Source: Bacillota bacterium | GTDB taxonomy: Bacteria > Planctomycetota > UBA8108 > UBA1146 | Length of the DNA stretch: 64,000 bases | Assembly: GCA_003973385.1 (NCBI GenBank) | Contig: QNYK01000010.1 | Coordinates: 4,519 to 68,518, forward strand | Direction: 5' to 3' | Shown here: piece by piece, positions 11,136 through 40,561 of the stretch | Layout of the letters: every line of letters starts with the position of its first letter | Position numbering within the stretch: the stretch's first letter is position 1 | Program-made: the position numbers and the translations under genes | Notes under the pieces: model-generated | Told to the model about the DNA's origin: nothing | What the model saw: only the letters and a program-made list of their open reading frames with translations | The model's database searches: none

Positions 11136-11474
11136 TCAATCCTGGCCGATCGAGGAGGATTCTCCGGCTCCCAGATCCGAGGATATTTCAGTGTCTTCAT
11201 CGGCATCAAAGGTCCTGCGAAGAAACTGCCGCACCGGGCGAAAGACCGCCCCCAGCATCGCATAACGGTGCCCGGAATCCAGTCCGGCATCGATACGCGG
11301 GACCAGCCCCAGGGAATCATCGTGGCCAGTTTTTTCCCCGAACACGGGAGTCAGCAACAGCCCATCCTGATCCTCCGCCTGCGGTCTCTGAACCTGCACC
11401 AGAACAGACCGGTTCGCGACGATGCGAGCACGCGCCTGATCACCGGTAGAGGCCTCGGAACCGAAATCAGTCAT
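11136..11474 (-). CDS. Small acidic hypothetical protein (112 aa), last gene of the GspK-like operon
   Basis: The ATG forms an ATGA overlap with the stop of the upstream 316-aa gene. It has no signal peptide and is acidic. It competes with a 144-aa plus-strand ORF, which I judge less likely because it lacks coupling. Confidence 0.4.
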   Translation of the reverse strand: MTDFGSEASTGDQARARIVANRSVLVQVQRPQAEDQDGLLLTPVFGEKTGHDDSLGLVPRIDAGLDSGHRYAMLGAVFRPVRQFLRRTFDADEDTEISSDLGAGESSSIGQD

Positions 11475-12421
11475 GTGGATAATTTCGACATTTCAATCTT
11501 CTGACTCTCGCACAATCGTTCCACGGTTTTCTGGAGATTGGTGAGCCTGGTAGACCGGCAATTGATGTCGATCTTGGCTGGACTCAGATCATCAGGATCT
11601 GGACTCAGACCCAGTTCTCCGTAGAGGCTTCTCGACCTGTCAAACGACCGCTTTGCCACTGCATTGATGATCTCTACCAGGTACTTCATGTCGCGCGAGT
11701 GAGGCAACATGGTCAGCGTTTTTCTGGCTTCCTTGATCTCGCCCTGCAACTTCCTGATCGGATCTCTCACATCTTTCTTACAGAAGGCTTGCCAGCTCTT
11801 CGGATCGAACTTGCCGCCCTTCTGAAACCGGGCCCCATCGATGGACGCAGTGCGACCATCCTCGAATGCCCGCTGATGTTTCAAACTATCGCGGATCTTC
11901 GCCAGAAAAAACTCCTGCGCCTCTCCACGCACACGCTCGATGTCCTTGGCACTACCGAGGTCAAACTTGTTCTTCCAGAAGGATTGCTTCCAGGGAGCGG
12001 TGTCGACCGGGTACTTGGCCGGGTCCTTCTCCATGGCAATTTGAACCTCGCGCGGCTGGCTTCGGGGCCTGATCTCGGATCGTAATTGCAGACCAGAAAT
12101 CGATCCGTGCAACCCTTTCAACTCCACGACCTGGTCGATACGACGGGTGCCATCGAGTTCAACATTGAAGGAATAGACGATGTTGGTCCGCCAACGAATC
12201 TCGAATCCGATGATGGTCTTTGCCGGAAGGTCTGGAGCTTTTCCGACCAATCGCATGTGCCAGTCATCCTTCTTCTTTGTCGTCTGTATCGAGGTCAACT
12301 CGACAAATGTAGGTGGCGGCTTGGGTGGGCCAGAATCGTCCTGAGCTGGCAGCGGAGCTGCGCACAGGAGGACACTCAGCAGCGATGAGATCATCAGATG
12401 TGGCGATACTAGGACCTTCAT
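11471..12421 (-). CDS. Secreted hypothetical protein, paralog 2 (316 aa, signal peptide)
   Basis: N-terminal signal peptide MKVLVSPHLMISSLLSVLLCAAPLPAQD. It is clearly paralogous to the 344-aa upstream ORF (TFVELTSIQTTKKKD...IRWRTNIVYSFNVEL vs LVEFTAIEATKDEKT...LTWRSQLIQTFTMTV). It has a 4-nt overlap with its neighbour. Confidence 0.65.
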   Translation of the reverse strand: MKVLVSPHLMISSLLSVLLCAAPLPAQDDSGPPKPPPTFVELTSIQTTKKKDDWHMRLVGKAPDLPAKTIIGFEIRWRTNIVYSFNVELDGTRRIDQVVELKGLHGSISGLQLRSEIRPRSQPREVQIAMEKDPAKYPVDTAPWKQSFWKNKFDLGSAKDIERVRGEAQEFFLAKIRDSLKHQRAFEDGRTASIDGARFQKGGKFDPKSWQAFCKKDVRDPIRKLQGEIKEARKTLTMLPHSRDMKYLVEIINAVAKRSFDRSRSLYGELGLSPDPDDLSPAKIDINCRSTRLTNLQKTVERLCESQKIEMSKLST

Positions 12422-13452
12422 CCCTGGTTCTCCTCATTCTCGGGTGCAATCCCGATCAACTTGTTGATTTTCACGACGAGGTCGTTGAGGTCTGTACTTC
12501 GCGGGACTCGGCGACCGGAACGAACCTTGATCTCGAGTTTTTCAGGTTTCACATCCCTGGCAGAAGCGGGCAGACCCTGCGAGATATAGAGTTTCTTCGA
12601 TTCGTTGGTAGTCCTCTTGCCCACTGCGACCGACAACTCGAGCAAGTAGGAGAGCGCCAATCTGTGAGCGACAAATCGGGGCTCGTTGAAACCCTTTCGA
12701 ATCTCCTCCTGATAGGTCACGAGTCTCTTGATGACCTTCTTATCCATGAATTCGCGCCACTTCTTCTCGTCGAACTCACCCTTGGAGTTGACGTATTCGG
12801 TCGCCAACTCGACCGCCTTGACACCTTTTCGGACCGTGCCGTCGATCGTGGCCATCTCCGTATACCTGCTTGTGAACCACTCTCTGGTGGTATTGAGCGA
12901 CGCCTCGATCTCTTCCTTGGTCCCGAGTAAGAACTGGTGATTGAAGTGGAATTCGGTCCATGGTGCGGCGACTGCAGGAAACAGTTCTTTTTCCTTCTCG
13001 ATGGCAGTCATCACCTTTTTTGTCTGCTTCTTGGGATCGATCACGGTTCGGAACATGTACTTGTCCGCAGTCGGTTCAAGAGGTTTCACGGCAAGCTGTT
13101 CGCGAAATCGTTTGTTGCCAGGCACTGTCATGGTGAAGGTCTGGATCAACTGACTGCGCCAGGTCAAAAGCAGGTCAATTTTCGTACCTGCCGGGATCTG
13201 TGGGGTCTTCCCCAGAACGATCAGCGTATAGCGGCCCGTCTTCTCATCCTTGGTCGCTTCGATAGCTGTGAACTCGACCAGTCGCAGATCTGTTCCCCCC
13301 GGCCCCCTGCCTTCGCCTTGTGCGAGAATCACGGCTGGCAGCCACGAGAACATCACACCCAGTATCAAACCGATCCACAGGGAACTCCTGAGAACCGGTC
13401 CCGGAATGAAGTTCTCGCTCGGAGTCATCGCAGATCTCCCTGCAGGGTTCAT
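12418..13452 (-). CDS. Secreted hypothetical protein, paralog 1 (344 aa, signal peptide)
   Basis: Signal peptide/TM LWIGLILGVMFSWLPAVILAQGEG. It is a paralog of the 11471..12421 product. A TGATG overlap links it to the upstream giant gene. Confidence 0.65.
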   Translation of the reverse strand: MNPAGRSAMTPSENFIPGPVLRSSLWIGLILGVMFSWLPAVILAQGEGRGPGGTDLRLVEFTAIEATKDEKTGRYTLIVLGKTPQIPAGTKIDLLLTWRSQLIQTFTMTVPGNKRFREQLAVKPLEPTADKYMFRTVIDPKKQTKKVMTAIEKEKELFPAVAAPWTEFHFNHQFLLGTKEEIEASLNTTREWFTSRYTEMATIDGTVRKGVKAVELATEYVNSKGEFDEKKWREFMDKKVIKRLVTYQEEIRKGFNEPRFVAHRLALSYLLELSVAVGKRTTNESKKLYISQGLPASARDVKPEKLEIKVRSGRRVPRSTDLNDLVVKINKLIGIAPENEENQG

Positions 13453-16400
13453 CAGTCCATCACCTCCGTCAGCAGATACTCAGCAGACGGAAGATAAACC
13501 GACAGGGTCACATCGTCGAGAGCAGGTGTTACCAGAGCCTTGCCCGCAAAGGTACCAATTCCGGTTCCTGCACGCATCCTGAGTTCGTACGCCAGAAATC
13601 CGATGTTGAAGCGGCCAATAAAATCAGGGCTTCCCGTCGGGTACAGCCACCCCCCGGCGATCAACTGGTTATTACGGCCGCCATCGCCACGGATACCGCC
13701 TCCGGAATCTCCCAGTTGGCGGGCACTCTGCTGGCCATTGACGTTGATGACGCTCATCGTTTCGTCATTCCAATCGACCCGCTGTTGTGCGTACATCTTG
13801 GGCGAGTACATCGTCCAGGTCATGTTTCTCAGTCGCATACGCTGGATCCCATCGGGGAAGGGCACCATGAATGCTCCGGTGTAGATCCCTTCCTGGTCGG
13901 TGTAATAACCCTTCTGCCGGCTGTCATCCTGGGTGTACTGTCCAAGGTAAACGCGAAACTCATCGATGGTCGCATTCGCCAGTACGCGCTTGACCGAGGC
14001 TCCCTTGAGCAATCCCGTTGTCGTGTAGTTGGTTCCAAACTTGAACAGCCCCTCGGTGGCCACTGCCTGATCGCGGTGAAATCCAGCGATCTGGATCTGG
14101 TCCTTTGGCGCCTCCTCATTGAGAGCGCAGAACATCCCCTCGCCGATATTGTGATTGACGGCATCGACCGTTGTATGATCGACCCAGACACGGATTCCAT
14201 TGGTGGGAGAATTGTCATCATAAGCCACCGCCAGATGGTGCCACTCATGCGCCCGCCAATTCGAGATATCCACCGCCACATCAGTGCGAGCCCAGAACTT
14301 CTGAGGATCAGTTTCAGCTTCGTTGCCCTCCTCGACCTCATCCTGATTGCCGATCAGAGGGATGGCCTGGGCGGTGTATCCCTTGGCAAAAGCCTGGTGA
14401 TAGTAGAGGCGAGATACTCGAAGTTGCCCCTCCGTGTTCTTCCAGATCCAGAACTGGGAACCCTCGGAATCGGTGAGTTGCTGACCCACATTGGTCTGAA
14501 CCTGGGTGGCACCGATGAGTCCAGAAAAAGTAGGATCGTCGCCGTTGAACTCCATCTTGACCCAGAAAGAGACGGCTCCGTTGTAGTAGGGAAGATTTCC
14601 GATGTCATTGTTGTAGTTGCGGTTGACCGCCCCCTGATCGCTGGGATTCTGGCGATAGCGCTGGGCGGGCAGGCGCAGAAACCGACCTCCGAGAGCCGAA
14701 GTCCGGAACATGCTGCTATTGATGCCATCCGGCATCAGATCTGAATTCTGGGACGCCTCATCGACGAAAGGCTCGCCGATGTTCTCCTCCTCCACGGCAC
14801 TATCAGCGGCTCCCCAGACTGATTGGGAGTATCGCTGGCGGTAGATGGTGCCCTTCTGGCTGTATGTGGCATCCAGCACCTTGCCCAGTTCCTTGATCTT
14901 GGCTGTCGGATTGGAATTGGTCCGCATCAGGTTACCCAGCACGCGAAGTGATTCCTCGTCGCGGAAACGAAAGGTGTGCGCTAGCCGAAGCGTCGCTTCC
15001 CCCGACCATCGCGCAAGTCTCGCACTCGGATCCGATACCTGCATCACCGCATCGATCGCTCCGGAGAGTTCCACTCGGCCGTCCTGCCTCGATCCGGTGA
15101 AGAAGTCAGGATGCAGCGCGTCCATCGGATCGGGCCACGTGGTGATGTACTCCCGCGACCCGCCTCTGGCATTACTGGTGCGCCCGACTGCCCTGAACGG
15201 CTCCTCGAACTGCTCCTGGGTGGTATGATGATAAACTTCAAACACCTTCACGATGCTGCGCTGTTTCGATTCCGAGAAGACCTCGTTACTCGAGTTCCCT
15301 GCACCGGTGATCTCCGCAAGGCTGGTGATCTCGAAGATCCCCTTGCTGTCGAAGCAGAACTCGGTCGTGTGCCCCATCCTGACATCACTCCGGTCGCGAC
15401 CAGGGGGAAACTTGACGAGGTTCGATTTGTCGACCGCACGGTAAGCAGGAAAGTTTGGATTGACCTTGTTGATTCGAGTATTGGGATTGAAATTGGCGAT
15501 CAAGATCGAACGCATCATTTCGTAGTACCAGGCGTTATTTCGATCTGCAGGCAAACCCACATCCGAGCGCAGTCCCTGCTCCACCTGCGGAACTCCCCGC
15601 GTCCACAACTCGCGAGAACCCACATCATTGACGATCTTCGAGTAGTTGTTGTCTGTATTGGTCGATTGAGGGTTGATCACCCAGGCATTTTCGGCGTTGG
15701 GGAAGGGGAATATGTCCGGCGGCAGTCTATTGATGAAGTCCTCGAAGCCGATTTCTCCGCTGCCGACCGGCGCGGTCCAGAACTTGAAGGCTCGTTGCTT
15801 GCGCTGCCCGACGATCCCGCGAGCGATATTTCTGGCGACATCGTAGGTGAGAGGCTGAGAGTAGACCCAGACCGGAGTCTGTTGAATGCTCAGTTCCTCC
15901 CGCACTGGAGCCAATGTACCGCCACCAAAATCGATGGCTCCGACATTGCCACTCTCCAGCGATTGCGAGTTGATACTCATGTAGGGAAATGCTCGACGAC
16001 CACCCACTCCCTGCAAAGCGGCGATCAACAACGGTTCAGGGGCGGTATTGATGTTGATGGGAGCTCGCGGCTCCCCGACGACCTGAGCCGCACCGATGAC
16101 GGTCTGATTGCGCGGATCCTGAGGTAAATTTCGAGAGATCCCCGTGGCTCCCGCACCCTGACCCTGATTCGCCTGGCCCCCGACACGGTTGTTGACCTCT
16201 CGGCCGGCACCCGATCGTTGAGTGTATGGGTTGACCCAGGCATGAGCAGTGATGAAATCTGCGAGAAGGGCCAGGTTCTCGCGCCCGATCAGGGCTGCCA
16301 GCTCGGACTTTGAACTGAACAGCCCCCCGGGAAGGCGATTTCGAAATGCGATCACATCTTCGCCAAAAAGCTGCCGACCCGTTTCTCTCGGTCCGCTCCA

Positions 16401-16952
16401 CAGTGGATTTGTTCCGTAGCGAGTATCTTTCTCCAGGGCAGCCGCCAGATTGGTCAGCATCTGGGCCAGCGTATCCTGTCTGCCATTGATGTAGAGTTGC
16501 GCCGAGGTGTCGATCAACTTGACGCGGTAGCGGTCCTTGCCATCCGCTCCCCCGGCGATACCCGGGTAAGAACCCCGTGTCAGGTTGTCTCCGAGCGAGG
16601 TCTCATCCGGGGGCGCATGACGCAGATCGAGGATTCCTCCGATCCTCGACTCGCCATCGCCTCCTGTGATGCCGTAGATCCACGGAGCCCGAGCTCGGCT
16701 GGAAACGACGTATCCTTCCCAGAAGGGGCGACTCCTGAGCATCGAGATCACCTCGGACTCGGCTGAAGCGGACAGCAACTGGGCCTTGTTATGATCCCGG
16801 AAATTCTCGGTTGCTTTCAGTTCAAGGCGCATCAGAGCCACGAAAGTGACCGCGATGATCGAGATCAGTGTCAGCACAGCCAGTGCGATGAGCAACATCG
16901 ACCCGCGCTCGCGACAGGCGGGGCCATTCACCTCAGGCGTCTCTGGAAACAT
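13452..16952 (-). CDS. Giant (~1166 aa) GspK-like pseudopilin-domain protein with C-terminal LamG/concanavalin-A-like domain
   Basis: N-terminal hydrophobic segment MLLIALAVLTLISIIAVTFVALMRLE is like the T2SS minor pseudopilin GspK N-terminus. Motif ININTAPEPLLIAALQGVGG resembles the GspK helix-hairpin-helix (NxNTAs) region. The C-terminal WRAHEWHHLAVAYDDNSPTNGIRVWVDHTTVD resembles a LamG/ConA-like fold. The ATG at 16952 is preceded by GAGGAGAGGGAAAGGGAAACC, and an alternative TTG lies at 16979. Confidence 0.6.
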   Translation of the reverse strand: MFPETPEVNGPACRERGSMLLIALAVLTLISIIAVTFVALMRLELKATENFRDHNKAQLLSASAESEVISMLRSRPFWEGYVVSSRARAPWIYGITGGDGESRIGGILDLRHAPPDETSLGDNLTRGSYPGIAGGADGKDRYRVKLIDTSAQLYINGRQDTLAQMLTNLAAALEKDTRYGTNPLWSGPRETGRQLFGEDVIAFRNRLPGGLFSSKSELAALIGRENLALLADFITAHAWVNPYTQRSGAGREVNNRVGGQANQGQGAGATGISRNLPQDPRNQTVIGAAQVVGEPRAPININTAPEPLLIAALQGVGGRRAFPYMSINSQSLESGNVGAIDFGGGTLAPVREELSIQQTPVWVYSQPLTYDVARNIARGIVGQRKQRAFKFWTAPVGSGEIGFEDFINRLPPDIFPFPNAENAWVINPQSTNTDNNYSKIVNDVGSRELWTRGVPQVEQGLRSDVGLPADRNNAWYYEMMRSILIANFNPNTRINKVNPNFPAYRAVDKSNLVKFPPGRDRSDVRMGHTTEFCFDSKGIFEITSLAEITGAGNSSNEVFSESKQRSIVKVFEVYHHTTQEQFEEPFRAVGRTSNARGGSREYITTWPDPMDALHPDFFTGSRQDGRVELSGAIDAVMQVSDPSARLARWSGEATLRLAHTFRFRDEESLRVLGNLMRTNSNPTAKIKELGKVLDATYSQKGTIYRQRYSQSVWGAADSAVEEENIGEPFVDEASQNSDLMPDGINSSMFRTSALGGRFLRLPAQRYRQNPSDQGAVNRNYNNDIGNLPYYNGAVSFWVKMEFNGDDPTFSGLIGATQVQTNVGQQLTDSEGSQFWIWKNTEGQLRVSRLYYHQAFAKGYTAQAIPLIGNQDEVEEGNEAETDPQKFWARTDVAVDISNWRAHEWHHLAVAYDDNSPTNGIRVWVDHTTVDAVNHNIGEGMFCALNEEAPKDQIQIAGFHRDQAVATEGLFKFGTNYTTTGLLKGASVKRVLANATIDEFRVYLGQYTQDDSRQKGYYTDQEGIYTGAFMVPFPDGIQRMRLRNMTWTMYSPKMYAQQRVDWNDETMSVINVNGQQSARQLGDSGGGIRGDGGRNNQLIAGGWLYPTGSPDFIGRFNIGFLAYELRMRAGTGIGTFAGKALVTPALDDVTLSVYLPSAEYLLTEVMD

Positions 16953-16984
16953 GGTTTCCCTTTCCCTCTCCTCGGGCAATCCCC

Positions 16985-17025: not shown

Positions 17026-18189
17026 CTAGGCTTCCACCTCTGCCGGCGCAGTTTTCGTATCACCGGTCGTATCACCGGTCGTATCACCGGTCTTATCACC
17101 GGTCTCGTTACCATCTCCGAAGAAGCGCTGGCGTAGTTCGGTATCGAGACGGCCGGAGAGTTCTGGATGATCCCTCAGGAACTGGACAGCGCGCTCACGC
17201 CCCTGTCCGATCCGCTCCTTGCCGAGCGAGTACCAGGTTCCCGCCCTGCTCACCAGTCCCTCCTCCACACCGAGGTCGAGTATGTCTCCGTGATAGGAGA
17301 TCCCGACATTGAATATGATGTCGAACTCGGCCTTTCGAAATGGCGGGGCCATCTTGTTCTTGACGACCTTGACGACGGTACGGTTCCCACTCACATCGCC
17401 ATCGGTCTTGATGGAGCCGATACGGCGGATGTCGAGACGAATCGACGCATAGAACTTCAGCGCTCGTCCACCGGAAGTGGTCTCAGGACTGCCAAACATG
17501 ACACCGATCTTCTCGCGGATCTGATTGATGAAGACCACGGTGGTCTTGGAACGATGGATGACGCCAGTCAACTTTCGCAACGCCTGACTCATCAGTCGGG
17601 CCTGCAAGCCCATATGCGAATCCCCCATCGATCCTTCCAGTTCAGCTCGCGGAACCAGCGCTGCCACCGAATCGATGACGACGATATCCACGGCGCTCGA
17701 GGCCACCAGCATCTCGCAGATCTCGAGTGCCTGCTCACCACTGTCGGGCTGTGAGACGAGCAGATTATCCAGATCGACGCCGAGTTTCTCTGCATAGGTG
17801 GGATCGAGTGCATGCTCGGCATCGATGAAGGCCGCAACGCCACCATTCTTCTGAGCATTGGCGATGGCGTGCAGGGTCAGGGTCGTCTTTCCGGAGGCCT
17901 CCGGTCCATACACCTCGACCACTCTCGCACGAGGCAAGCCACCGATCCCCAGTGCTTTGTCGAGGGAAAGTGATCCGGTCCTGATCACATCGACCTTTCT
18001 CGACTCCTTGTCCCCCAGCATCATGATCGCACCCTGGCCGCATTTCTTGTGGATCTGCTGCAGGGCGAAGTCGAGCGCTTGCTTGCGCTGTGCGTCGAGT
18101 CCCTTGATTGAATCGGTCAGCGAAGGCTCAGCAGCCTCGGTCGATTTCTTGCTCGCTGAAGCGCGCGTCTTGCGTTGTCTGTCTACCAT
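17026..18189 (-). CDS. recA: Recombinase A with N-terminal extension and C-terminal Gly/Asp/Thr repeat tail
   Basis: [65 protein letters not shown] matches Walker A, L1/L2 and the RecA core. The ATG at 18189 is preceded by GGAGGAG. The C-terminus [16 protein letters not shown] is encoded by a 12-bp tandem repeat. Confidence 0.9.
17059..17106. repeat. 12-bp tandem repeat (ATCACCGGTCGT x4) encoding the RecA C-terminal GDTT repeat tail
   Basis: Four head-to-tail copies were read directly, in frame, inside the recA 3' end. Confidence 0.8.
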
Positions 18190-18304
18190 CTCACTCCTCC
18201 ATCCTGGCCCGAGATTCCGGCTCTCGCCGGTGGCCTTCATTCCCCCTGGAATTGTTCTCGCCTGTTGTTCGCATCATCATCTTCATCGATTCCACGGGGC
18301 TGAC

Positions 18305-30782: not shown

Positions 30783-32552
30783 TCAGGCGTCCGCGCCCTC
30801 GATGGCGGGAGCCTCTTCACCCGCTTCCAGGATGGCATCCTCGACGGCGCTGCCCTCTTCTGGTTTCAACAGGGGAAACAGCACCACATCACGAAGATTT
30901 TCGGCACCACACAGGAGTGCCACCATCCGATCGATCCCCATCCCCCAGCCAGAGATGGGTGGCATGCCATGCTCCATCGCCATCAGATAATCCTCGTCCA
31001 TCACCATCGCTTCGCTGTCACCTTCGGCATTCAATGCCGCCTGCTCTTCAAGGCGACCGCGCTGATCGATGGGGTCGACCAGTTCGGAGTAAGCGTTGAT
31101 CACTTCCCAGCCGTGGATCACCAGTTGAAACCGATCAGAGATGTTTGCTTCATCATCGTTTCGACGCGCCAGAGGTGACAGATCGACCGGGTGAGAGGTG
31201 ACGAATGTGGGAGATGTGATGCGGGGGCGAACCGTCTTCTTGTACAACTGGTCGATGAGGGTTCCACGGCCAAACTTCTCTGCACCATCGATGGTAATCT
31301 CTGCGGCTCCGAGCGCGCTCCGGAGTGAATCTGCATCGGGACAAGCATTGACATCGATCCCGGAATGCTCCTGGATCAGATCGAGCAAGGGTCGGCGAGG
31401 CCACTCCCCCGAGAAATCGATCTCGCCAGCGGCATGAGTCACCTGCAATGAGCCGGTTGATGCTTCTATCGCCTGGCGAAGCAATCTCTCGGTGAAGTCC
31501 ATGTTGTCGATGTAGTTCCAGTACGAAGCATAGTACTCGAGCATGGTGAAATCCTGCAGGTGTGAAGGATCCATACCCTCGTTGCGGAAGACGCGAGCAA
31601 ACTCGTAGACACGATCAAAACCGGCCACAACACAGCGTTTCAGGTAGGTCTCGGGAGCGATCCGGAGGTAGACCGGAATATCGAGTGCCGCATGATGCGT
31701 CTCGAAGGGTCGCGCGAGTGCACCCGAAGGCTTGGTCTGCAGTACCGGAGTTTCGACCTCATCAAATCCCGCCTCATCCAGCCCCTTGCGCAACGCACGA
31801 ATAAAATCGTGGCGCAATCGAAATCGTGCGCGCGAGTCTGCATCTGTGATCAGGTCGAGATAGCGTCGTCGGTATCGAATCTCACGATCGGCGATGGCAT
31901 GAAACTTCTCAGGCATGGGGCGCAACATCTTGCCAAGAATTTGCCAGTTCGACCCACGCACCGTCAGTTGACCGATCTTGGTGTGATAGGTCTCGCCCTC
32001 GATCCCGACGAAATCGCCGACATCGACCAATTTTATGAAATCGGTGTACGACTCCTTGCCAAGATCATCGCGCTGCAGTGAGCACTGCATGCGCCCACCG
32101 ACATCCTGCACATCGAAGAAGGTCAACTTGCCGAAGTCGCGACGGCTGACGATCCGACCACAAACTCGAACGCCACCGACTCCCGCTTCCAGCTGTGAAG
32201 CCTGCCCCGGTGTATGCGTACGCTGCCACCGCTCCGGATAGGGCTGGAGGCCCTTGTCACGCAATTTCTGGATCTTCTCGATCTTGATCTCGCGGATCCG
32301 GTCCTCGGCCACGATTCCCCCCACTCCGGCGCAGGTAAGCCGTTGCTGTGCTTCTGCGTACTCGTATCCTGGCGTCGGTGCCACCGGAAGGGGGGCGCCG
32401 ACTGCCAGGCTCGCCGGGATCCTAGCCCGCACCGGGTCGGCGGTCAAAGAGACCTGAGCGGGTTCGTTGACTTGGACGCTGCAGGGATTTACCCTTCTTC
32501 CTGCCTCCAGACGCCTGAATTGGCGCCAGAGGAGCCTCGGAAGGAAACCCAC
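30783..32552 (-). CDS. lysS: Lysine--tRNA ligase (class II)
   Basis: Class II motifs 1-3 (FLEVETP-like VETPVLQ, ...FRNEGMD..., GWGMGIDRMVALL) plus an anticodon-binding OB domain. The true start is probably internal (around ...VAEDRIREIKIEK). The stop is only 11 nt from the convergent thiL stop. Confidence 0.8.
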   Translation of the reverse strand: MGFLPRLLWRQFRRLEAGRRVNPCSVQVNEPAQVSLTADPVRARIPASLAVGAPLPVAPTPGYEYAEAQQRLTCAGVGGIVAEDRIREIKIEKIQKLRDKGLQPYPERWQRTHTPGQASQLEAGVGGVRVCGRIVSRRDFGKLTFFDVQDVGGRMQCSLQRDDLGKESYTDFIKLVDVGDFVGIEGETYHTKIGQLTVRGSNWQILGKMLRPMPEKFHAIADREIRYRRRYLDLITDADSRARFRLRHDFIRALRKGLDEAGFDEVETPVLQTKPSGALARPFETHHAALDIPVYLRIAPETYLKRCVVAGFDRVYEFARVFRNEGMDPSHLQDFTMLEYYASYWNYIDNMDFTERLLRQAIEASTGSLQVTHAAGEIDFSGEWPRRPLLDLIQEHSGIDVNACPDADSLRSALGAAEITIDGAEKFGRGTLIDQLYKKTVRPRITSPTFVTSHPVDLSPLARRNDDEANISDRFQLVIHGWEVINAYSELVDPIDQRGRLEEQAALNAEGDSEAMVMDEDYLMAMEHGMPPISGWGMGIDRMVALLCGAENLRDVVLFPLLKPEEGSAVEDAILEAGEEAPAIEGADA

Positions 32553-32613
32553 CGCAGCCAGGAACTTCGATCAGATCCTGTCTCCGGCAACCAGAGAGAA
32601 AGAGGGAGGGGCC

Positions 32614-32841
32614 ATGAGTCCGAACTCCAAACGTCGTACCATTCGTACATTTGCCATGCTTCTTTGTCTGAGTCTGGCACTTGCGATGTCTGGCTGCGCC
32701 ACTGGACCCAAGAGCACCGTTGCATCGAGCCTCTACTGGAAGCGCGTCTTCCGTCAGATGGGCAATGATCTTCGTGCGGCTCGCACCGACATCGATCGCA
32801 TCGTCTGGGATCTCGACGACCGTCCCATCGAGCAGTACTAG
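32614..32841 (+). CDS. Small lipoprotein (75 aa)
   Basis: MSPNSKRRTIRTFAMLLCLSLALAMSGC lipobox, preceded by GAGGGAGGGG. It lies in the lysS-miaA intergenic region. Confidence 0.5.
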   Translation: MSPNSKRRTIRTFAMLLCLSLALAMSGCATGPKSTVASSLYWKRVFRQMGNDLRAARTDIDRIVWDLDDRPIEQY

Positions 32842-32966
32842 TCTCGAACATTTCGTCGGTCAGTCCTCGTACCAAGGGGGAAGGTCCATCCGGGTCCGGC
32901 TGCCAACGGCGGTCGGACCTGCTTTTCATCCGGTTCAGATCTTGCTTGATCGAGGTTGTTCTGTGA

Positions 32967-33952: not shown

Positions 33953-34714
33953 CTACTCCAGGTAACGCACTTCCATCTCACCGTCCTCGATGAAGAGGTG
34001 AGCACCTCGGTCCTCAAACGCTTCCAGAACCGTGAAGGTACCGGCTCCCTCCGACTGATCCAGTTTCTCCTCGAAGGGTCGATGGTAGTGACCGCAGACG
34101 ACTCTATCGAAACCATCCTTCAGCAGGTCTCCGACAACTCTCCGGTCCGGCTCCATCAGAATCTGTGCCTTTCCCTCCAGAGATCGTCTTGAACTACGCC
34201 GTAGAATACGGGCCAACCCCTTGCACATGAACATCGGCAGGTGTCTGACCACGAACCGGAACAAGTTACTTCGGAGAACCGTGCGCAAGCGCTGGTAGCC
34301 GCGGTCTGCAGTTCCAAATAGATCGCCGTGAGAAAGGTGCCACCTCTGGCCGCCTGTCTCCAGCAACAGATGATCTCCACCGACCGCCACGCCTGTAGCC
34401 CGTTCGAAACTTGAATCGAGAAGAAAATCGCGATTGCCAGGAATCACCACCACATCGATTTCTGATTCGCAGGCGTGACGTAGCGCGTCGAGTTCACGAC
34501 GAGTCTGGGACAGGGAGATCTGGCCAGGGCCGAGCCAGACATCGAACAGATCGCCGAGCAGATAGCAGTCGGCGCCATTCTCCTGGCAACTGCGAAGCAA
34601 CTCCTCCAGCATCGCAAGCCGGCGAGCAGATCCATCGCAGTGCAGGTCGGCGGCTATGATGCACCGTTGCGATGTCGATACGCTCCCCACATCAGCAGTG
34701 CCTGGCTGGCTCAT
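33953..34714 (-). CDS. LpxH-like calcineurin-type metallophosphoesterase (UDP-2,3-diacylglucosamine diphosphatase-like)
   Basis: IAADLHCDGS and CYLLGDLFDVWLGPG match the LpxH motifs (ISDLHL / LYILGDLFEAWIGDD). It forms an ATGA overlap with the upstream ATPase gene. Confidence 0.6.
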   Translation of the reverse strand: MSQPGTADVGSVSTSQRCIIAADLHCDGSARRLAMLEELLRSCQENGADCYLLGDLFDVWLGPGQISLSQTRRELDALRHACESEIDVVVIPGNRDFLLDSSFERATGVAVGGDHLLLETGGQRWHLSHGDLFGTADRGYQRLRTVLRSNLFRFVVRHLPMFMCKGLARILRRSSRRSLEGKAQILMEPDRRVVGDLLKDGFDRVVCGHYHRPFEEKLDQSEGAGTFTVLEAFEDRGAHLFIEDGEMEVRYLE

Positions 34715-37488
34715 GCTTCCGGAATCGTCCAGTCGTCCGGATCGAAATGGGTTTCGGAGGACTTCTTCTCGCGCGGGGGAACAGATTTTTCAGATCGCTC
34801 CCTCTCTGCGGGCCGCTCCTTGACTGCCGGTGGGCGAGGTCTGGACTCTTCCTTCTGCGGTGGCGGGGAAGGTCTCGACTCTTCCTTCTGCGGTGGCGGG
34901 GAAGGTCTCGACTCTTCCTTCTGCCGTGGCGGGCGAGGTCTGGATTCTTCCTGCTGCCGTGGCGGGCGAGGTCTGGACTCTTCCTTCTGCCGTGGCGGTC
35001 GAGGTCTGGACTCTTCCTTTTGCCGTGGCGGGGACTCTGGAGGTTGCGGTCGCGGCGCCTTGCTCTTGACCGGCGGCGTCGGCTGATGCGGTGCTGGCGC
35101 CTGTGATCTGCGCCGCTCCGGTGACTCAGATCTGCGAGCTTCCTGCCGTCGCGGACGGCGTGGAGACGGAGCCGGCCCATCTTTTTTCGGGGATTTTCGA
35201 AGCGGAGGTGACAACTCCTGAGAAGGCTCACGACTGGGTGCCGAGACCTCGGGCAACGACATGTCCTCGAGGTCGATCTCGAGACGATCCGCATCCTGAT
35301 CGGTCTCTATCAACAGATCAAAACATTTGCGAGCAGCCGGGTCGAGGTCAGGATGCGTAACGATCACCTGCGAAAGTTCCCGGCTCAATCGAGGTAGCGC
35401 TTGCAGGGTGCGCAACACCCTCCCCCGATCCATGGCAGGGAATGGTTCGTCGAGGAACAGGAACTGAGGAGCTCCCGTGACGGCCCTGACAAAGGCCTGA
35501 GCGAAGGCGAGGCGAAAACCGAAGGACAATCCCTGCAAGGTTCCACCCGACAACTCATGCGTCTGAAGAAAATCACTCTTCTCTCCCGTGAAGAGGCGAA
35601 TCTCGAAGTCCGGGGTCACCTGCGCATCCCGATAGCGACCACCGGTCAGATGCGGAAGCAGGCGACAGAGCCCTTTTCCGAGACTGGGGCCGGCACGCAT
35701 TCGCACCGACTCGATGGTTTCATCGAGCAGTTCCAGTAGTAGTCGGTGAATATCCATCTCGTCGCGGATCGCCAGGGACTTCTTTCGCCGACCATCGGAA
35801 ACTTCCTCGAGAGCTCTGCGACGGCCCTCCTGATTCTGGTACTCACGAATCTCGGACTGGATACGTTCCCGCTTGGAGCGAAGTCGCTTGACCGAATCCT
35901 TGGCCTCATCGAGCGATTTTCGGCGTTCTTTCATCGTCTGGCGAACACGGTCGAGCGGGCTCTTCAACTTCTGGGCCAGGAAGTCACCGGGCTTGTCGCC
36001 CAGTTTCGTGTGAATCTCCCGTCGAGCCTTTCGTAGCGCCTCCAGTTTCTCCTGGACGCCACGAACTCGACATTCTCCGATGTCGTCACCAGGATCGAGT
36101 CCCCCCGAGGAGCGAGACAGGTGGGCGATCGTCGCTTCCAGAGAACTGGTCCCGACATCCTTCTCCATCTGCAGTCTCGACAGGATTCCCTCGGCATCGA
36201 AGATCTGCTGTCGACAGTGCGAGGCGCGTGACGAAAGCCAGCAGCCGAGCCCGAATAACAACGCTCCAGAGGCTGCAACCAGGTATCCGACTCCCGGTAC
36301 CGGAGAAATCCGCACCAGCAGCGGAATTTGCTCTCCGATTCCCCAGCCCTGTTCGTGATCGATTCCCAGCACGATGCCCGCCAGCCCGACCAGGAAGATC
36401 ACCAGTGCGCCGGCTCGGTTTCTCACCCTGGACGCGCTGATGGTATGGATGATCAGTTCCTGTTCACTCACCTCCGATTGAATCGAGCCCTCGCCGTCGC
36501 TCTCGATGCGTCGCTTCAACTGTTCCTTCGCCTCCCGCGCACTCTCTTCGAGAGAGAGGCGGATCTTGCACGCCTGGGAGACCTGATCGAGACCGTCTTG
36601 AATAGGCGTGGTGATGGAATCCTGGTCACGCAACGGCTCGGGGCTCAGATCCGCCTGGAGCAATCCAATCAGTCCATTGCATGTACGCATCGCTTCGGCA
36701 GCGTCGCTGGAATCGATCGACCGAAGTTCATGCTGAATCTTCTGCACCTCGTCACGCTTCTTCTGCTCAAGTTCCACCTGACGCTGCATCTGGCGATCGC
36801 GCGACCGCGCCTCATCGACCTTGTTGTCCCGATTCTTCAGTTCTTCCTCGAGGTCCGGAATCTTATCGATATTGGGCTGAAGCCGAGCGATGTGCAGGTC
36901 GTTGCGCTGGATCTCTTCCTGTACCCCGGTGAAATCGATCTCCAGGGCATCGAGTGCCTTATTCGCGGTTCGTCTCGCCCCTTGCAACACATCGATTCCG
37001 GCCACCCTGTCCAGGAATGTGCGGAACTGTTCCGGGGTCGTCACCGACTCCCGCTCGGCGAGATAGAAGGAGTGCATCGTTTCGCTTGCGCCGAGGTGGA
37101 AGCGCCTCTGAACCTCACGTTGCACCTGCAATGCCCCGGATGCGATCTCCTCCCCGGGTGGTGCGCCTGACTTCTCGATTCGAACCATCCGTGCGAAGGA
37201 GGTGCCGAACCGGTCCATCTCGCGCCAGATTCGATATCCCTCACCGGCGTGTTCAAAATCGAGTTCCACGACGCAGTGGTCATCATCCCAGTGGATCAGA
37301 TCGGTGATGGAACCACGCACCATGTGCTGGGTGGATCCAAACAGGGCGAACTGGAACAGCTGGCCGATACTCGACTTGCCACTCTCATTGGGCCCGACGA
37401 TGCCGATCAGGGCCCGGCGCGGAAAGTTCTCGATGCGGAGTTTCCTGAACTTCAGAAATCCCTCGGCTCGGAGGCTACGGATCAGCAA
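34711..37488 (-). CDS. SMC/SbcC/RecF-like ABC ATPase (925 aa) with long coiled coils, a central two-TM hairpin and a C-terminal Pro/Glu/Lys-rich 11-aa tandem-repeat tail
   Basis: Walker A GPNESGKSS, signature plus Walker B LSGGTLQGLSFGFRLAF...FLFLDEPFPAMD, and an H-loop VIVTHP. The central hydrophobic segments are LVIFLVGLAGIVLGI and YLVAASGALLFGLGCWL. The tail is (SRPRPPRQKEE)x6. Confidence 0.7.
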   Translation of the reverse strand: MLIRSLRAEGFLKFRKLRIENFPRRALIGIVGPNESGKSSIGQLFQFALFGSTQHMVRGSITDLIHWDDDHCVVELDFEHAGEGYRIWREMDRFGTSFARMVRIEKSGAPPGEEIASGALQVQREVQRRFHLGASETMHSFYLAERESVTTPEQFRTFLDRVAGIDVLQGARRTANKALDALEIDFTGVQEEIQRNDLHIARLQPNIDKIPDLEEELKNRDNKVDEARSRDRQMQRQVELEQKKRDEVQKIQHELRSIDSSDAAEAMRTCNGLIGLLQADLSPEPLRDQDSITTPIQDGLDQVSQACKIRLSLEESAREAKEQLKRRIESDGEGSIQSEVSEQELIIHTISASRVRNRAGALVIFLVGLAGIVLGIDHEQGWGIGEQIPLLVRISPVPGVGYLVAASGALLFGLGCWLSSRASHCRQQIFDAEGILSRLQMEKDVGTSSLEATIAHLSRSSGGLDPGDDIGECRVRGVQEKLEALRKARREIHTKLGDKPGDFLAQKLKSPLDRVRQTMKERRKSLDEAKDSVKRLRSKRERIQSEIREYQNQEGRRRALEEVSDGRRKKSLAIRDEMDIHRLLLELLDETIESVRMRAGPSLGKGLCRLLPHLTGGRYRDAQVTPDFEIRLFTGEKSDFLQTHELSGGTLQGLSFGFRLAFAQAFVRAVTGAPQFLFLDEPFPAMDRGRVLRTLQALPRLSRELSQVIVTHPDLDPAARKCFDLLIETDQDADRLEIDLEDMSLPEVSAPSREPSQELSPPLRKSPKKDGPAPSPRRPRRQEARRSESPERRRSQAPAPHQPTPPVKSKAPRPQPPESPPRQKEESRPRPPRQKEESRPRPPRQQEESRPRPPRQKEESRPSPPPQKEESRPSPPPQKEESRPRPPAVKERPAERERSEKSVPPREKKSSETHFDPDDWTIPEA
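34838..35035. repeat. 33-bp tandem repeat x6 (GGTCTGGACTCTTCCTTCTGCSGTGGCGGSSAA), in frame in the ATPase C-terminus
   Basis: Read directly. Copies start at 34838, 34871, 34904, 34937, 34970 and 35003 with few substitutions. Confidence 0.85.
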
Positions 37489-37742
37489 GGGTCCCCCCCT
37501 TGCGGGCTGCCCTGTTCGAACTTTTCATCGGAGATGAACTGCTCGCCGAGACGACGAGCCATCTCATACTTGCGCAGACTCTCTGCATCCACCTTGCCCT
37601 CGAAGGCGCGTTTCTTCATCTCGAAGAGGCGACGGAACTCCTCCAGGGGCGGCCGGATGGCTAAACCATCGAGGAGCCAACCGTCCTCATCGGACTCTGG
37701 CGAGGGAGCACTGTTGTCTCCGCCTTGGCGGTCTCTGTTCAT
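37482..37742 (-). CDS. Small (86 aa) acidic hypothetical protein overlapping the start of the SMC-like ATPase
   Basis: Its ORF end overlaps the ATPase start by 7 nt (coupling). It has no recognisable motifs. Confidence 0.4.
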   Translation of the reverse strand: MNRDRQGGDNSAPSPESDEDGWLLDGLAIRPPLEEFRRLFEMKKRAFEGKVDAESLRKYEMARRLGEQFISDEKFEQGSPQGGDPC

Positions 37743-37827: not shown

Positions 37828-38391
37828 TCAAGAAACGATCGCGGCGCGAAAGGCACGATGGACCGGGTCATCTGAGCCGATGCCTATCGCCTGGATCTGG
37901 CCCAACCGCACTCCATCTGCTTCATGGGCCAGATCGATTCGCAGGCACCGATCCGGCAGGATCGCCTCGACACGATCAGCCCATTCGACCGCGATCACCC
38001 CCTCCTGGTGCCACTCGTGCCAGCCGTGCAGTTCCAGTTCGGTCGGATCGTCGAGACGATAGGCATCGACATGGATCAATGGCAGTACTCCAGGATGCAG
38101 GGACGCGACGGTGAATGTGGGACTGCGTACCCTGCCCTCGACACCCATTCCTCGGGCCAGTCCACGGACCAGTGCGGTTTTTCCAGCGCCCAGTTCACCG
38201 CACAGACCGATCACAAGACCCGCCATCGCGGCGGCCCCGATGCGCTCCCCCAGGGCTTCCGTTTCGTCCACGGAGGCCAGTTTCAGGGCAGCAGAGGTCG
38301 GTTTCGATCCTGACACTTCGGTACACCTTTCCGAACAGGCGAGCCTATCGGGCACCTTGAAGGGGTACAACCCTGCTGGCGATGGGACCAT
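37828..38391 (-). CDS. tsaE: tRNA threonylcarbamoyladenosine biosynthesis protein TsaE (YjeE ATPase)
   Basis: P-loop LCGELGAGKTALVRGLA and the YjeE core ...SPTFTVASLHPG...HVDAYRL. The start is probably internal to the track ORF. Confidence 0.75.
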   Translation of the reverse strand: MVPSPAGLYPFKVPDRLACSERCTEVSGSKPTSAALKLASVDETEALGERIGAAAMAGLVIGLCGELGAGKTALVRGLARGMGVEGRVRSPTFTVASLHPGVLPLIHVDAYRLDDPTELELHGWHEWHQEGVIAVEWADRVEAILPDRCLRIDLAHEADGVRLGQIQAIGIGSDDPVHRAFRAAIVS

Positions 38392-38476: not shown

Positions 38477-40561
38477 TTGAGACGCCCACTGCCGATCCTG
38501 GTCACACTTCTGCTGCTGTCGCTGACGCTCTTCGGCGCAGATCCCAAGGAATTTGAACTGCCCGGCCCTCCAGCCGCGGGGCCAGGTCGCATTCCCCATC
38601 ACCACGGCGCCATCGAATCTCTCTCCGGCATCTCCGAACTCTCCAGAGAGAACCGTTCATCGGCAGCCATGTTGTTGCGGAAGTGGCTCGAAACACGCGA
38701 TGGGCTGCTGGTGCTGCCCCCCGCGGGAGTATCGGTGGGCAGCCGCGGAACCGTCCGCATCGAGCCCGCTCATCGACAGTTGGCGCGCTTCGCCAGGTCG
38801 CTCCCCGATGGGTTCCTCGACCTCGCCCTGGAACGGTTGGCCCCGATCCCCATCGATGGAGTCCACCCATGGGTATGGCATCCGGAACAACTTCCGCAGG
38901 CCAACCACGCCTTGCACGAGGCACTCGAGCGCGCCGATCGAGCAGCGGCCTGGGCACTGCTGGAGCGACCGGGGATCGCGGTCGGGATCGATCCCGAATT
39001 ACTCCGATGGCTCGATGGCCAGGAATTGCCTCGTGGGCCGTGGCACCGGAGCGATGGCCCCCTCACCGAGGAGCCAGAACAAACAGCGGGAGGCTCGGTC
39101 GAGGGAGCGTTGACGATCCCGATGCCCAGGACCGGACCCGAACGAAAGAGAAGAATCAATTCCAGGGTCCAGCTGACCCGGCGCCATCCGCTGTCTGATC
39201 TGTTTCCGCTGATCGGCGATCGGATGGCGTTGCTCGGTAACGGCGACAGGGTCATCGCCATCGACATCGATGATCCGACGCTGGAAGCGTGGCAATGGTC
39301 GATCCATCGACCCGAGATCGATCACGCCAGCAAGGCCCCCGAGAGGCCATTGCCTCTGATCAGTGTTCCCGAGATCCCCGTCAGTAGCGGTGACCGGTGC
39401 GTATTCTTGCTCCGAACACCGCGCAAATACCACCGCCCATCGACCAATCTCATCATGGAAAGCGGACCCTGGAAGGACAAGGGATGGCTGGAAGCGGTGG
39501 TTCTCGAGATCCCCGATCCGACCAGACCGCCGGTTTCCTCCTGGGTTGCGCCCATCGCAACCGAGGGCTTCACCGCCTGCCCGACTCCGTTGATCGAAGG
39601 CGACCGGATGTGGCTGCTGGCCACTCGCGGTTGGGCCCAGCTGGAGACATGGGTGTTCGCGTTTGACCTGGCCGCTGGCAAGGAGTTGTGGCGTCGCCAG
39701 GTCGAGGTGCGGGATCTGGAAGCCCACGCACTCAATGACCTGCGCGACAAGATACTGCACGCGTCGCTGGTGCGAGATGGGGACGATCTGCTCGTGTGTC
39801 GCTCCGGCGGTGCCATCGATAGCCTGTCAGCGATCACCGGGGAGCATCAGGCAGCTCTGTACCTACCACGATGGCGGTTCGAGGAATTACCGAGTCTCAG
39901 CGACATCCGCTGGGGTCACTACCGGTTCCTCGCTTATCCAGGACTGAGACCACGATCGATGGCACCGATCCAGCGGCCCGCCGATGCCGAAACCCCGTGG
40001 CTGTTACTTCCTCCCGATGGCCGCCTGCTGATCGCACTCGACAAGGAGTCGTGGCAGATCCGCTGGAGTTATCCGACCAGCCGCCAGATGTCGCTGCTGG
40101 GCATCGTCGATGGTGTCGCCTGGCTGGTAGATCTGGCGACACCTCCGGGAACCCGGAATGTTCAGCTGGTGGGTCTGGATCCGCGCAGCGGCAGCATCGT
40201 GGCGGGACCCTGGACCATTCCACTGGAGACGGAGGATGATTCCGAGGGGAGCGCTGAATACCAGCGACACGCACCGTTGCTCAGAGGGCAACCGAGGATT
40301 TTTCCCGGACGCATCTGGTTCCCTGCAGCAAGGGGAATCGAGGTCGTATCGCTGGAGGACGGCAGCCGGATCGGCCTGCTTCCCTGGCCTGAAGGATCCA
40401 GAGGTGGCACTCCGCTACCGCTTCCAGGGGGCGAACTGTTGCTGGCTCGACGCGCAGATAGCGCACTTCCCTCCAGCAGCGTGATCGAGGTGATCCGGCC
40501 CACCGCAACAGATGAGATCAAGAAACCTGAACCGCAACAACCTGAACCGCAAAAAGATTAG
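38477..40561 (+). CDS. Secreted hypothetical protein (694 aa), probable beta-propeller (PQQ/BamB-like WxxQ repeats), C-terminal PEPQ repeats
   Basis: Signal peptide MRRPLPILVTLLLLSLTLFGA, with repeated W..(R/E) strands and a C-terminal KKPEPQQPEPQKD. Confidence 0.5.
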   Translation: MRRPLPILVTLLLLSLTLFGADPKEFELPGPPAAGPGRIPHHHGAIESLSGISELSRENRSSAAMLLRKWLETRDGLLVLPPAGVSVGSRGTVRIEPAHRQLARFARSLPDGFLDLALERLAPIPIDGVHPWVWHPEQLPQANHALHEALERADRAAAWALLERPGIAVGIDPELLRWLDGQELPRGPWHRSDGPLTEEPEQTAGGSVEGALTIPMPRTGPERKRRINSRVQLTRRHPLSDLFPLIGDRMALLGNGDRVIAIDIDDPTLEAWQWSIHRPEIDHASKAPERPLPLISVPEIPVSSGDRCVFLLRTPRKYHRPSTNLIMESGPWKDKGWLEAVVLEIPDPTRPPVSSWVAPIATEGFTACPTPLIEGDRMWLLATRGWAQLETWVFAFDLAAGKELWRRQVEVRDLEAHALNDLRDKILHASLVRDGDDLLVCRSGGAIDSLSAITGEHQAALYLPRWRFEELPSLSDIRWGHYRFLAYPGLRPRSMAPIQRPADAETPWLLLPPDGRLLIALDKESWQIRWSYPTSRQMSLLGIVDGVAWLVDLATPPGTRNVQLVGLDPRSGSIVAGPWTIPLETEDDSEGSAEYQRHAPLLRGQPRIFPGRIWFPAARGIEVVSLEDGSRIGLLPWPEGSRGGTPLPLPGGELLLARRADSALPSSSVIEVIRPTATDEIKKPEPQQPEPQKD

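Follow-up and report, generated by a model that had tools for sequence, protein, structure and literature searches.

Three adjacent minus-strand genes raise the question of whether they encode one machine or share only an operon. They lie at 33953–37742 of a 64,000-nucleotide (nt) stretch of planctomycete DNA (contig QNYK01000010.1), the whole of which is called here the window. They encode a small open reading frame (ORF), a 925-amino-acid (aa) SMC/SbcC-like ATPase and a calcineurin-type phosphoesterase. The original prediction, made from the sequence alone, combined all three into a possible membrane-associated machine and compared it with SbcCD/Mre11-Rad50 and with Lamassu-type defence modules. 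Our analysis favors, with a probability of about 60%, a different description: a Rad50-like ATPase with a membrane hairpin at the apex of its coiled coil, a translationally coupled small partner protein, and an incidental neighbor, LpxH.

Sequence and fold comparisons show the predicted protein to be a Rad50/SbcC-type ATP-binding cassette (ABC) ATPase with intact nucleotide-binding motifs. In Pfam it matched AAA_23 (52 bits) and SMC_N (41 bits), and Rad50 was its best match both in NCBIfam and among PDB sequences. The scores remained below the cut-offs of specific families: the best NCBIfam Rad50 equivalog gave 70.7 bits against a cut-off of 847, and Pfam SbcC_Walker_B gave 19.1 bits against a cut-off of 27. 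An AlphaFold2 model of residues 1–745, built from an 80-sequence alignment of distant relatives, had a mean predicted local distance difference test (pLDDT) value of 88.2, with most head blocks at about 85–97; in an earlier 13-sequence model the mean value was 63, the heads were poor, and only the coiled coil was good. A Foldseek comparison with PDB ranked Rad50 first (7zr1, 5dny, 3av0), along with SbcC of E. coli (7yzp), followed by Smc5/6, MukB, LmuB, and JetC. The C-terminal head was aligned by hhalign to that of an AAA_27-type protein (P0027) with a probability of 99.8%. The RecF/SMC-type Walker A, signature, Walker B, and H-loop, recognized from the outset in the 925-aa protein, were all located by alignment (Table 1). 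Walker A (GxNExGKS/T), the signature, Walker B (DEP), and the D-loop were conserved family-wide.

The long coiled coils that had been predicted appear in the model as two antiparallel arms of approximately 190 residues each, which link the N- and C-terminal halves of the head; the breaks of the ascending and descending arms match each other. The CxxC motif of the zinc hook was absent from the whole translation of the ATPase. In the position of an SMC hinge, two adjacent hydrophobic segments were found, as anticipated, carried by two long model helices (residues 336–380 and 400–458). The 19-residue loop joining these helices had the lowest confidence in the model (pLDDT 64–68).

The hydrophobic pair was conserved throughout the family. 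Two central hydrophobic 19-mers were present in all 13 members of the window's clade (13/13). With a hydrophobic segment defined as a 19-mer with a mean Kyte–Doolittle value of at least 1.6, 117 of the distant representatives of at least 590 aa (n = 131) had two central segments, 12 had one, and 2 had none; the pair was also found in 44 of the 47 complete ORFs from metagenome loci. Four unrelated Rad50/SMC-like matches had no hydrophobic segments. In 140 proteins, the fraction of lysine and arginine was 0.30 in the 15 residues before helix 1, 0.07 in the loop, and 0.24 in the 15 residues after helix 2. This positive-inside pattern fits a hairpin whose two ends are cytoplasmic, so that the ATP-using heads would lie inside the cell. 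The loop between the helices was short (median length 23 aa, n = 140) and unconserved, which suggests an anchor or a dimerization element rather than a sensor domain. These data fit an apex formed by a predicted two-transmembrane-helix hairpin, with both ends cytoplasmic, which replaces the zinc hook or hinge. The idea that the coiled-coil apex lies in the membrane is thus supported by hydropathy and by the positive-inside pattern, and it describes a large family rather than the window alone. Weak matches to Pfam PF07332 (Holin-X, holin superfamily III; best E-value 2e-4) were obtained with the hairpin region in 3 of 21 members; the composition of two neighboring membrane helices probably accounts for them.

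The small ORF upstream of the ATPase gene had been regarded as a coupled partner, and gene order agreed with this in all the loci compared. In the window's clade, the small ORF was 35–87% identical and overlapped the ATPase start by the same 7 nt in 22 of 22 readable loci. In 9 distinct looked-up loci of distant subfamilies, an ORF of 62–164 aa was located directly upstream of the ATPase, usually with a 4-nt overlap. A metagenome scan, limited to loci whose upstream sequence was 150 nt or longer, revealed a co-directional ORF ending from −16 to +11 nt of the ATPase start in 73/73 loci; the overlap was 4 nt in 52 of them, and the median length of the upstream ORF was 68 aa. The small proteins were mostly acidic to neutral. 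An hhalign comparison of the planctomycete small ORFs with those of an intermediate group (82%, P 1e-5) gave well-supported homology. Planctomycete and gammaproteobacterial small ORFs shared the register (G)P-x-E-E-F ... Y/F-x-x-A-x-x-L. We failed to find any match for the small ORF of the window in Pfam, NCBIfam, PADLOC, or PDB, and a hidden Markov model of its clade found planctomycete relatives only. Conserved position and coupling support a short, predicted helical protein, translated from the coupled upstream ORF, as a real and conserved partner. This predicted protein is the one universally conserved neighbor of the ATPase family; no other was found among the loci compared, the genes for the RNB RNase, GCV_T, and the CxxCxxCC-domain protein each being subgroup-specific.

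A word-indexed search retrieved only about 26 close relatives of the ATPase, all from metagenome-assembled genomes of marine Planctomycetota. When a trimmed alignment of 7 sequences served as the profile in an exhaustive search, 5261 representative clusters were obtained at E ≤ 1e-3, 1397 at E ≤ 1e-10, and 338 at E ≤ 1e-30; many of these matches were colinear over the full profile and about 600–1000 aa long. The named gammaproteobacterial members, described as sulfur-oxidizing, belonged to Thiogranum, Sedimenticola, Chromatiaceae, Chromatiales, and Endothiovibrio diazotrophicus; other named members belonged to Candidatus Tectomicrobia and Planctomycetota. Their database labels were generic ("AAA family ATPase", "SbcC"), and neither Pfam nor NCBIfam nor PADLOC contained a specific name for the family. 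The searchable literature contained no description of the family, nor of relevant transmembrane SMC- or SbcC-like proteins; one key classification of ABC ATPases was outside its coverage. No full-length homologue was detected by tblastn in 72,556 plasmids and 50,697 phage records. The ATPase diverged faster than the neighboring genes in the clade of the window, and lineage-specific synteny was kept in the other groups of the family too. The survey shows a chromosomal, vertically inherited setting. In gene-order comparison, conservation throughout this large family, which spans Planctomycetota, Gammaproteobacteria, and other phyla, extended to the putative two-gene pair and to no other gene.

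The gene downstream of the ATPase had been noted for LpxH-like motifs, and its predicted product is clearly LpxH, UDP-2,3-diacylglucosamine diphosphatase, in the form of a divergent planctomycete orthologue. The full-length match to NF003743 reached 131.3 bits against a cut-off of 134, a near miss, and that to TIGR01854 reached 111.8 bits against a cut-off of 190.35; the NCBI name of the orthologues was UDP-2,3-diacylglucosamine diphosphatase. All PDB matches (9/9) were LpxH. Residues 22–248 aligned to residues 7–234 of the LpxH chain, and all five motifs (ADLH, GDLFDVW, GNRDFLL, SHGD, and GHYHRP) aligned to the same motifs in solved LpxH chains. Residues 137–185 aligned without gaps to residues 122–170 of P. 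aeruginosa LpxH and likewise to the 8qjz chain; this gap-free stretch after HGD is the LpxH lipid-binding cap. No other metallophosphoesterase turned up in a Pfam scan of about 31 window ORFs (approximately 4.5–48 kb), a similarity search of the whole window for LpxH not having been made. A role of the enzyme as an Mre11/SbcD-like nuclease was ruled out by the exclusively LpxH matches and the intact cap.

The position of lpxH proved to be lineage-specific. In the window's clade, the order small ORF–ATPase–phosphoesterase was present in every locus extending far enough. The whole neighborhood hppA-rsfS-PQQ-tsaE-small ORF-ATPase-lpxH-miaA-lysS-thiL was syntenic throughout this clade, so the conservation of three genes within it says little. 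In intermediate relatives, the ATPase was flanked by rsfS-tsaE upstream and miaA downstream; miaA followed the ATPase directly in L049, L050, L052, and L054, and lpxH was inserted between them only in L058. A phosphoesterase was beside the ATPase in none of the 9 distinct looked-up loci outside the clade. The downstream gene in these loci was that of DAHP synthase, a convergent phosphofructokinase or glutaredoxin, a CxxCxxCC-domain protein, or an unknown ORF. In outgroup Planctomycetota, lpxH was located between genes of a sigma-54 activator and a pseudouridine synthase, with 4-nt overlaps and no ATPase nearby. The conservation of the three-gene order was rejected as functional evidence because of the clade-wide synteny and because LpxH was not adjacent to the ATPase in more distant relatives. 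The original prediction had itself named three joint signs of incidental housekeeping packing, namely a full LpxH cap, no second LpxH homologue in the genome, and ATPase homologues without the enzyme; the first and the last of these were found. As judged from gene order, lpxH is a putatively co-transcribed neighbor of the module but not part of it, a case of lineage-specific operon packing.

Several points weigh against the description proposed here. The assignment of the membrane helices draws on hydropathy and charge bias, and the AlphaFold2 model of the ATPase is a monomer. In the window's clade, Glu takes the place of the Q-loop Gln, and the H-loop His varies across the family, being Gln, Pro, or Leu in many members. 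Some members may consequently hydrolyze ATP slowly, and these substitutions hint at slow or regulated hydrolysis. The hhalign comparison of planctomycete and gammaproteobacterial small ORFs gave P-values of 2e-4 and 0.012, which are not statistically secure, and homology of these two groups, as read from their common register, is suggestive. Finally, lpxH adjoins the ATPase gene across the whole clade, down to 38% ATPase identity, and a lineage-specific functional link between LpxH and the ATPase, as this clade-wide adjacency would imply, is possible.

Among the known systems, SbcE (YhaN) of B. subtilis is the closest precedent for the window family. SbcE, an ATPase resembling SbcC, has long arms of heptad repeats, lacks the CxxC hook, and takes part in transformation and in the repair of double-strand breaks; its "unique" central domain is hydrophobic in the first half, was insoluble on expression, and is not described as membrane-spanning (PMC2811018). 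The window ATPase resembles it in having a hydrophobic central domain instead of a hinge or hook, and the AAA_27-type proteins P0027 and P0028 have central hydrophobic segments as well. Unlike SbcE, the window ATPase scored only 16.6 versus 22 bits with AAA_27 (PF13514), AAA_23 being much stronger; AAA_27 matched 17 of 21 family members at E < 0.01, always more weakly than AAA_23. The partner in the window family is a helical protein of approximately 65–90 aa encoded upstream, and not the SbcD-like SbcF (YhaO), and the hosts belong to Gram-negative phyla.

The window ATPase shares with Rad50/SbcC a bipartite ABC head, the arrangement of LTxGxY, signature, and Walker B, and an antiparallel coiled coil; the head motifs are present except for the Q-loop Gln, which is replaced by Glu145. 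It differs from Rad50/SbcC in the membrane hairpin at the apex, in the lack of a zinc hook, and in the lack of an adjacent Mre11/SbcD nuclease. Its coiled coil is shorter than that of E. coli SbcC or eukaryotic Rad50. The likeness to Lamassu LmuB, Wadjet JetC, and MADS mad3 consists of generic SMC/Rad50-like heads and coiled coils with weak PADLOC and fold matches. One PADLOC LmuB model gave 70 bits over residues 13–712 and the others gave at most 29 bits (no cut-offs were given), and Rad50 was comparable or better. PADLOC gave no match for either neighboring protein of the ATPase. The window module differs from these systems in having no effector or kleisin-like partner genes and in its chromosomal housekeeping context, and we know of no membrane hairpin in the LmuB, JetC, or mad3 families. 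On these comparisons, the predicted ATPase is neither a Rad50/SbcC orthologue nor a component of Lamassu, Wadjet, or MADS.

Three other explanations have to be weighed. The three-part machine proposed originally, in which the ATPase and the small protein would act with a calcineurin-type enzyme as nuclease or effector, like SbcCD/Mre11-Rad50 or SbcE/SbcF, is largely refuted and now very improbable. It could draw on the ATGA overlap that couples the ATPase and phosphoesterase genes, on a gene order constant in the clade down to 38% ATPase identity, and on the precedent of SbcE, whose hydrophobic central domain coexists with pairing to the SbcD-like phosphoesterase SbcF (PMC2811018). These arguments are countered by the identity of the enzyme, which is LpxH and not Mre11/SbcD, with NF003743 missed by only 3 bits, and by the relatives described above in which no phosphoesterase adjoins the ATPase. 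Moreover, miaA is coupled to lpxH equally tightly, which indicates that such overlaps reflect compact operons rather than shared function, and the lpxH genes of the outgroups overlap unrelated genes by 4 nt likewise. Both analogies of the original prediction fall together with the triad, that with Lamassu also for want of LmuA and LmuC genes at the locus. An envelope role of the FtsEX or MacB kind, in which the protein would serve as a scaffold or relay ATP-driven movement of the heads along the coiled coil to the periplasm or the membrane, perhaps in lipid A or envelope biogenesis here, is unlikely. The protein is predicted to be membrane-anchored, lpxH adjoins it in the clade of the window, and a BamB-like PQQ-repeat ORF with a weak, sub-threshold match is located nearby. 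Nevertheless, with an outer loop this short and unconserved, a periplasmic domain that could be acted on is missing, the head belongs to the Rad50/SMC and not to the transporter type (ABC_tran, 17.5 bits versus a cut-off of 25), and adjacency to envelope genes is confined to one lineage.

Defense against phages or plasmids, of the Lamassu or abortive-infection kind, would mean that the ATPase senses foreign DNA and that the hairpins oligomerize and damage the membrane. The weak PADLOC matches (mad3 with 81 bits over the C-terminal half, and the single LmuB model mentioned above), the LmuB and JetC structures among the fold matches, the weak holin match of the hairpin, and the faster divergence of the ATPase are what such a role could explain. 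We consider it improbable: Rad50 and SbcC outscored LmuB and JetC in every comparison, no LmuA, LmuC, or other effector gene was found at the locus, and the module occupies one fixed position in a syntenic housekeeping neighborhood clade-wide, with lineage-specific synteny in the other groups. Defense genes are usually patchy and island-like in their distribution. No full-length copies were carried by the plasmids or phages searched, and no mobile-element genes were found in the examined part of the window (roughly 4.5–48 kb). The defense reading was set aside on the generic character of the weak PADLOC matches together with the lack of full-length copies in the plasmids and phages searched.

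For the Rad50-like ATPase with a membrane-hairpin apex and a small partner, we tentatively propose that it works at the inner membrane as a clamp or tether for DNA that is gated by ATP. On the model of Rad50 and SMC, two inner-membrane-anchored protomers would engage their heads on ATP binding. The heads would reach approximately 25–29 nm into the cytoplasm if the arms were fully extended, and the space enclosed by the two arms and the membrane could serve to hold DNA or tether it there. The membrane hairpins would take over the apex-dimerizing role of the hook or hinge, and the small protein may bind the head or neck as a stoichiometric regulator or bridge the heads. In the lineage of the window, the disordered tail would present a C-terminal docking peptide recruiting another factor. 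It is conceivable, though doubtful at present, that the family constitutes a distinct, widespread, and undescribed SMC/Rad50-like class, in which a hairpin stands in for the hinge or hook and a dedicated small subunit (about 65 aa) for the kleisin or nuclease, clamping chromosomal or incoming DNA at the inner membrane.

To our knowledge, all well-studied SMC/Rad50-type machines are soluble, and their arms are closed by a hinge or a zinc hook. In the window family, the arm is predicted to close in the membrane instead, and two arms plus the bilayer could form a ring. If this is true, DNA would be linked to the inner membrane physically, directly, and in a testable way; this would be a new chromosome–membrane connection in Gram-negative bacteria and would offer a basis for understanding why SbcE of B. 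subtilis has a hydrophobic domain at its center, which is unexplained. A family member is carried by at least one cultured named species, Endothiovibrio diazotrophicus, which makes experiments feasible. For annotation, it is of practical use that the genes of the family are labeled "SbcC" or "AAA family ATPase" and that the small partner gene next to them is easily overlooked. The case of lpxH and miaA shows that start–stop overlaps in compact operons are not evidence of shared function.

The six 11-aa repeats noticed at the C-terminus of the ATPase correspond to a tandem repeat detected in the tail (Table 1). It was absent from the aligned homologues and is thus a local expansion. Across the window's clade, the tail was 100–304 aa long and proline-rich, with a net charge from −20 to +16; it was absent from the family versions of about 600–800 aa. 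Only the motif at the tail end was conserved, namely DDW[TV]IP at the extreme C-terminus of near relatives or [QG]FLAGIFD close to the end in deeper ones; these tail ends were noted in P0018–P0023. A conserved basic DNA-binding domain was ruled out by the range of net charge and by the restriction of the repeat to the window. By its sequence, the tail is a fast-evolving disordered linker and not a conserved functional repeat. It reads as a flexible tether and looks like the carrier of a docking peptide for some partner. The tail-end motif may resemble the acidic–hydrophobic tip of the single-stranded DNA-binding protein SSB.

The ORF listing and direct reading of the strand gave five co-directional minus-strand genes (Table 1). 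The small ORF, described originally as overlapping the ATPase start, shares 7 nt with it at 37482–37488 (ccTTGCTGA), and a purine-rich GGGGGGA precedes the TTG immediately on its 5' side. The N-terminus MLIR is common to all homologues of the ATPase, which confirms the TTG start. The other two junctions were read as previously reported: the ATPase stop overlaps the phosphoesterase start (gcATGAgc), and the phosphoesterase stop TAG is separated by 2 nt from the ATG of miaA. Only a weak promoter-like site, at chance frequency, was found in the gap between tsaE and the small ORF, and we failed to find a credible internal terminator in the operon. The window ORFs scanned between approximately 4.5 and 48 kb were ordinary chromosomal housekeeping genes, including lgt, rseP, purD, recA, lysS, miaA, tsaE, and hppA. 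The locus is probably a two-gene module inside a housekeeping operon, tsaE/small ORF–ATPase–lpxH–miaA.

Table 1. Features of the ATPase locus, with positions in the window, strand, and the basis of each assignment.
Feature	Position	Strand	Basis and remarks
tsaE	37828-38391	-	ORF listing
Small partner ORF, 86 aa	37482-37742	-	ORF listing; conserved core WLLDGLAIRPPLEEFRRLFEMKKRAFEGKVDAESLRKYEMARRLGEQFI; acidic, predicted helical
Rad50/SbcC-like ABC ATPase (predicted), 925 aa, TTG start	34711-37488	-	ORF listing, conserved N-terminus
N-terminal head half, aa 1-164	36997-37488	-	Alignments; pLDDT about 85-97 for aa 1-140 and about 72-86 for aa 141-164
Walker A GPNESGKS, aa 32-39	37372-37395	-	Alignment
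Q-loop position Glu145 (Gln in most of the family)	37054-37056	-	Alignment
Ascending coiled-coil arm, aa 165-358	36415-36996	-	DSSP on the AlphaFold2 model; breaks near aa 258-262, 279-289, and 330-335
Predicted transmembrane helix 1, aa 359-377, AGALVIFLVGLAGIVLGID	36358-36414	-	Kyte-Doolittle 19-mer mean 2.34; Arg-rich flank before
Loop between membrane helices, aa 378-399, predicted non-cytoplasmic, poorly conserved	36292-36357	-	Charge statistics
Predicted transmembrane helix 2, aa 400-418, VGYLVAASGALLFGLGCWL	36235-36291	-	Kyte-Doolittle mean 1.76; followed by basic flank SSRASHCRQ
Descending coiled-coil arm, aa 419-615	35644-36234	-	DSSP on the AlphaFold2 model; breaks near aa 459-475 and 497-508
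C-terminal head half, aa 616-740	35269-35643	-	LTGGRY, signature, Walker B, D-loop, His712
Signature LSGGT, aa 646-650	35539-35553	-	Alignment
Walker B FLFLDEP, aa 676-682	35443-35463	-	Alignment
H-loop His712 in VTHP	35353-35355	-	Alignment
Disordered Pro/Arg/Glu/Ser-rich tail, aa 741-925	34714-35268	-	pLDDT <50 (13-sequence AlphaFold2 model)
Tail tandem repeat, 33-nt unit, 6.1 copies, SRPRPPRQKEE-type units	34832-35032	-	Tandem Repeats Finder; 91% matches
Tail-end motif DDWTIP	34720-34737	-	Conserved in near relatives
LpxH phosphoesterase (predicted), 253 aa	33953-34714	-	PDB and NCBIfam matches
miaA	32967-33950	-	ORF listing

In relatives with about 28% identity to the window ATPase (L049, L050, L052, L054, L058, L061, and L066), the pair was still located between rsfS-tsaE and miaA. 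TsaE and MiaA both modify the tRNA position A37 (t6A and i6A, respectively), and this flanking, which was not seen in gammaproteobacterial members, may be an old inherited gene order or a real link. In deeper planctomycete relatives, tsaE was separated from the small ORF by genes for a DRTGG/AAA_26 protein and for a Ser/Thr kinase (L035:1357-3811, L043:2245-4664), and lpxH was separated from miaA by a gene for a STAS-domain protein (L035:7762-8115, L043:8116-8472). In two different long-form subfamilies, represented by L042 and L046 (963 and 926 aa, respectively), a CxxCxxCC-domain gene (PF03692, putatively Zn/Fe-chelating) overlapped the ATPase stop by 4 nt (L042:6212-6700, L046:7778-8302) and may be a third component specific to them. 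Seventeen P0186-type metagenome loci had a gene of the RNB family (RNase II/R-like, about 606 aa) immediately ahead of the small ORF, at a distance of 230–570 nt upstream from the ATPase (for example, L122:1898-3718, with the same arrangement in L038:3615-5429). A GCV_T/YgfZ-like gene was present further upstream in 10 of the 17 loci as subgroup-specific synteny. A weakly matching protein of 966 aa (P0032) combined Metallophos (PF00149), AAA_23, and SMC_N, resembling a fusion of the Mre11-Rad50 type, and had no hydrophobic segments.

Elsewhere in the window, a 1175-aa ORF (13452–16979, minus strand) located immediately downstream of recA (17026–18240) and the next two ORFs, of 344 aa (12418–13452, minus strand) and 316 aa (11471–12421, minus strand), had no Pfam match at E ≤ 1e-5. 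The PQQ ORF next to the operon (694 aa, 38477–40561, plus strand) had a signal-peptide-like N-terminus and a weak, sub-threshold PQQ_2/BamB-like match, and it was kept divergent from tsaE throughout the clade with 27–86% identity. On the other side, a 124-aa ORF (32467–32841, plus strand) encoded a lipoprotein-like signal sequence (LALAMSGC). A strong hairpin (14 bp, with a T-rich tail) at 32891–32921 separates this ORF from the end of miaA.

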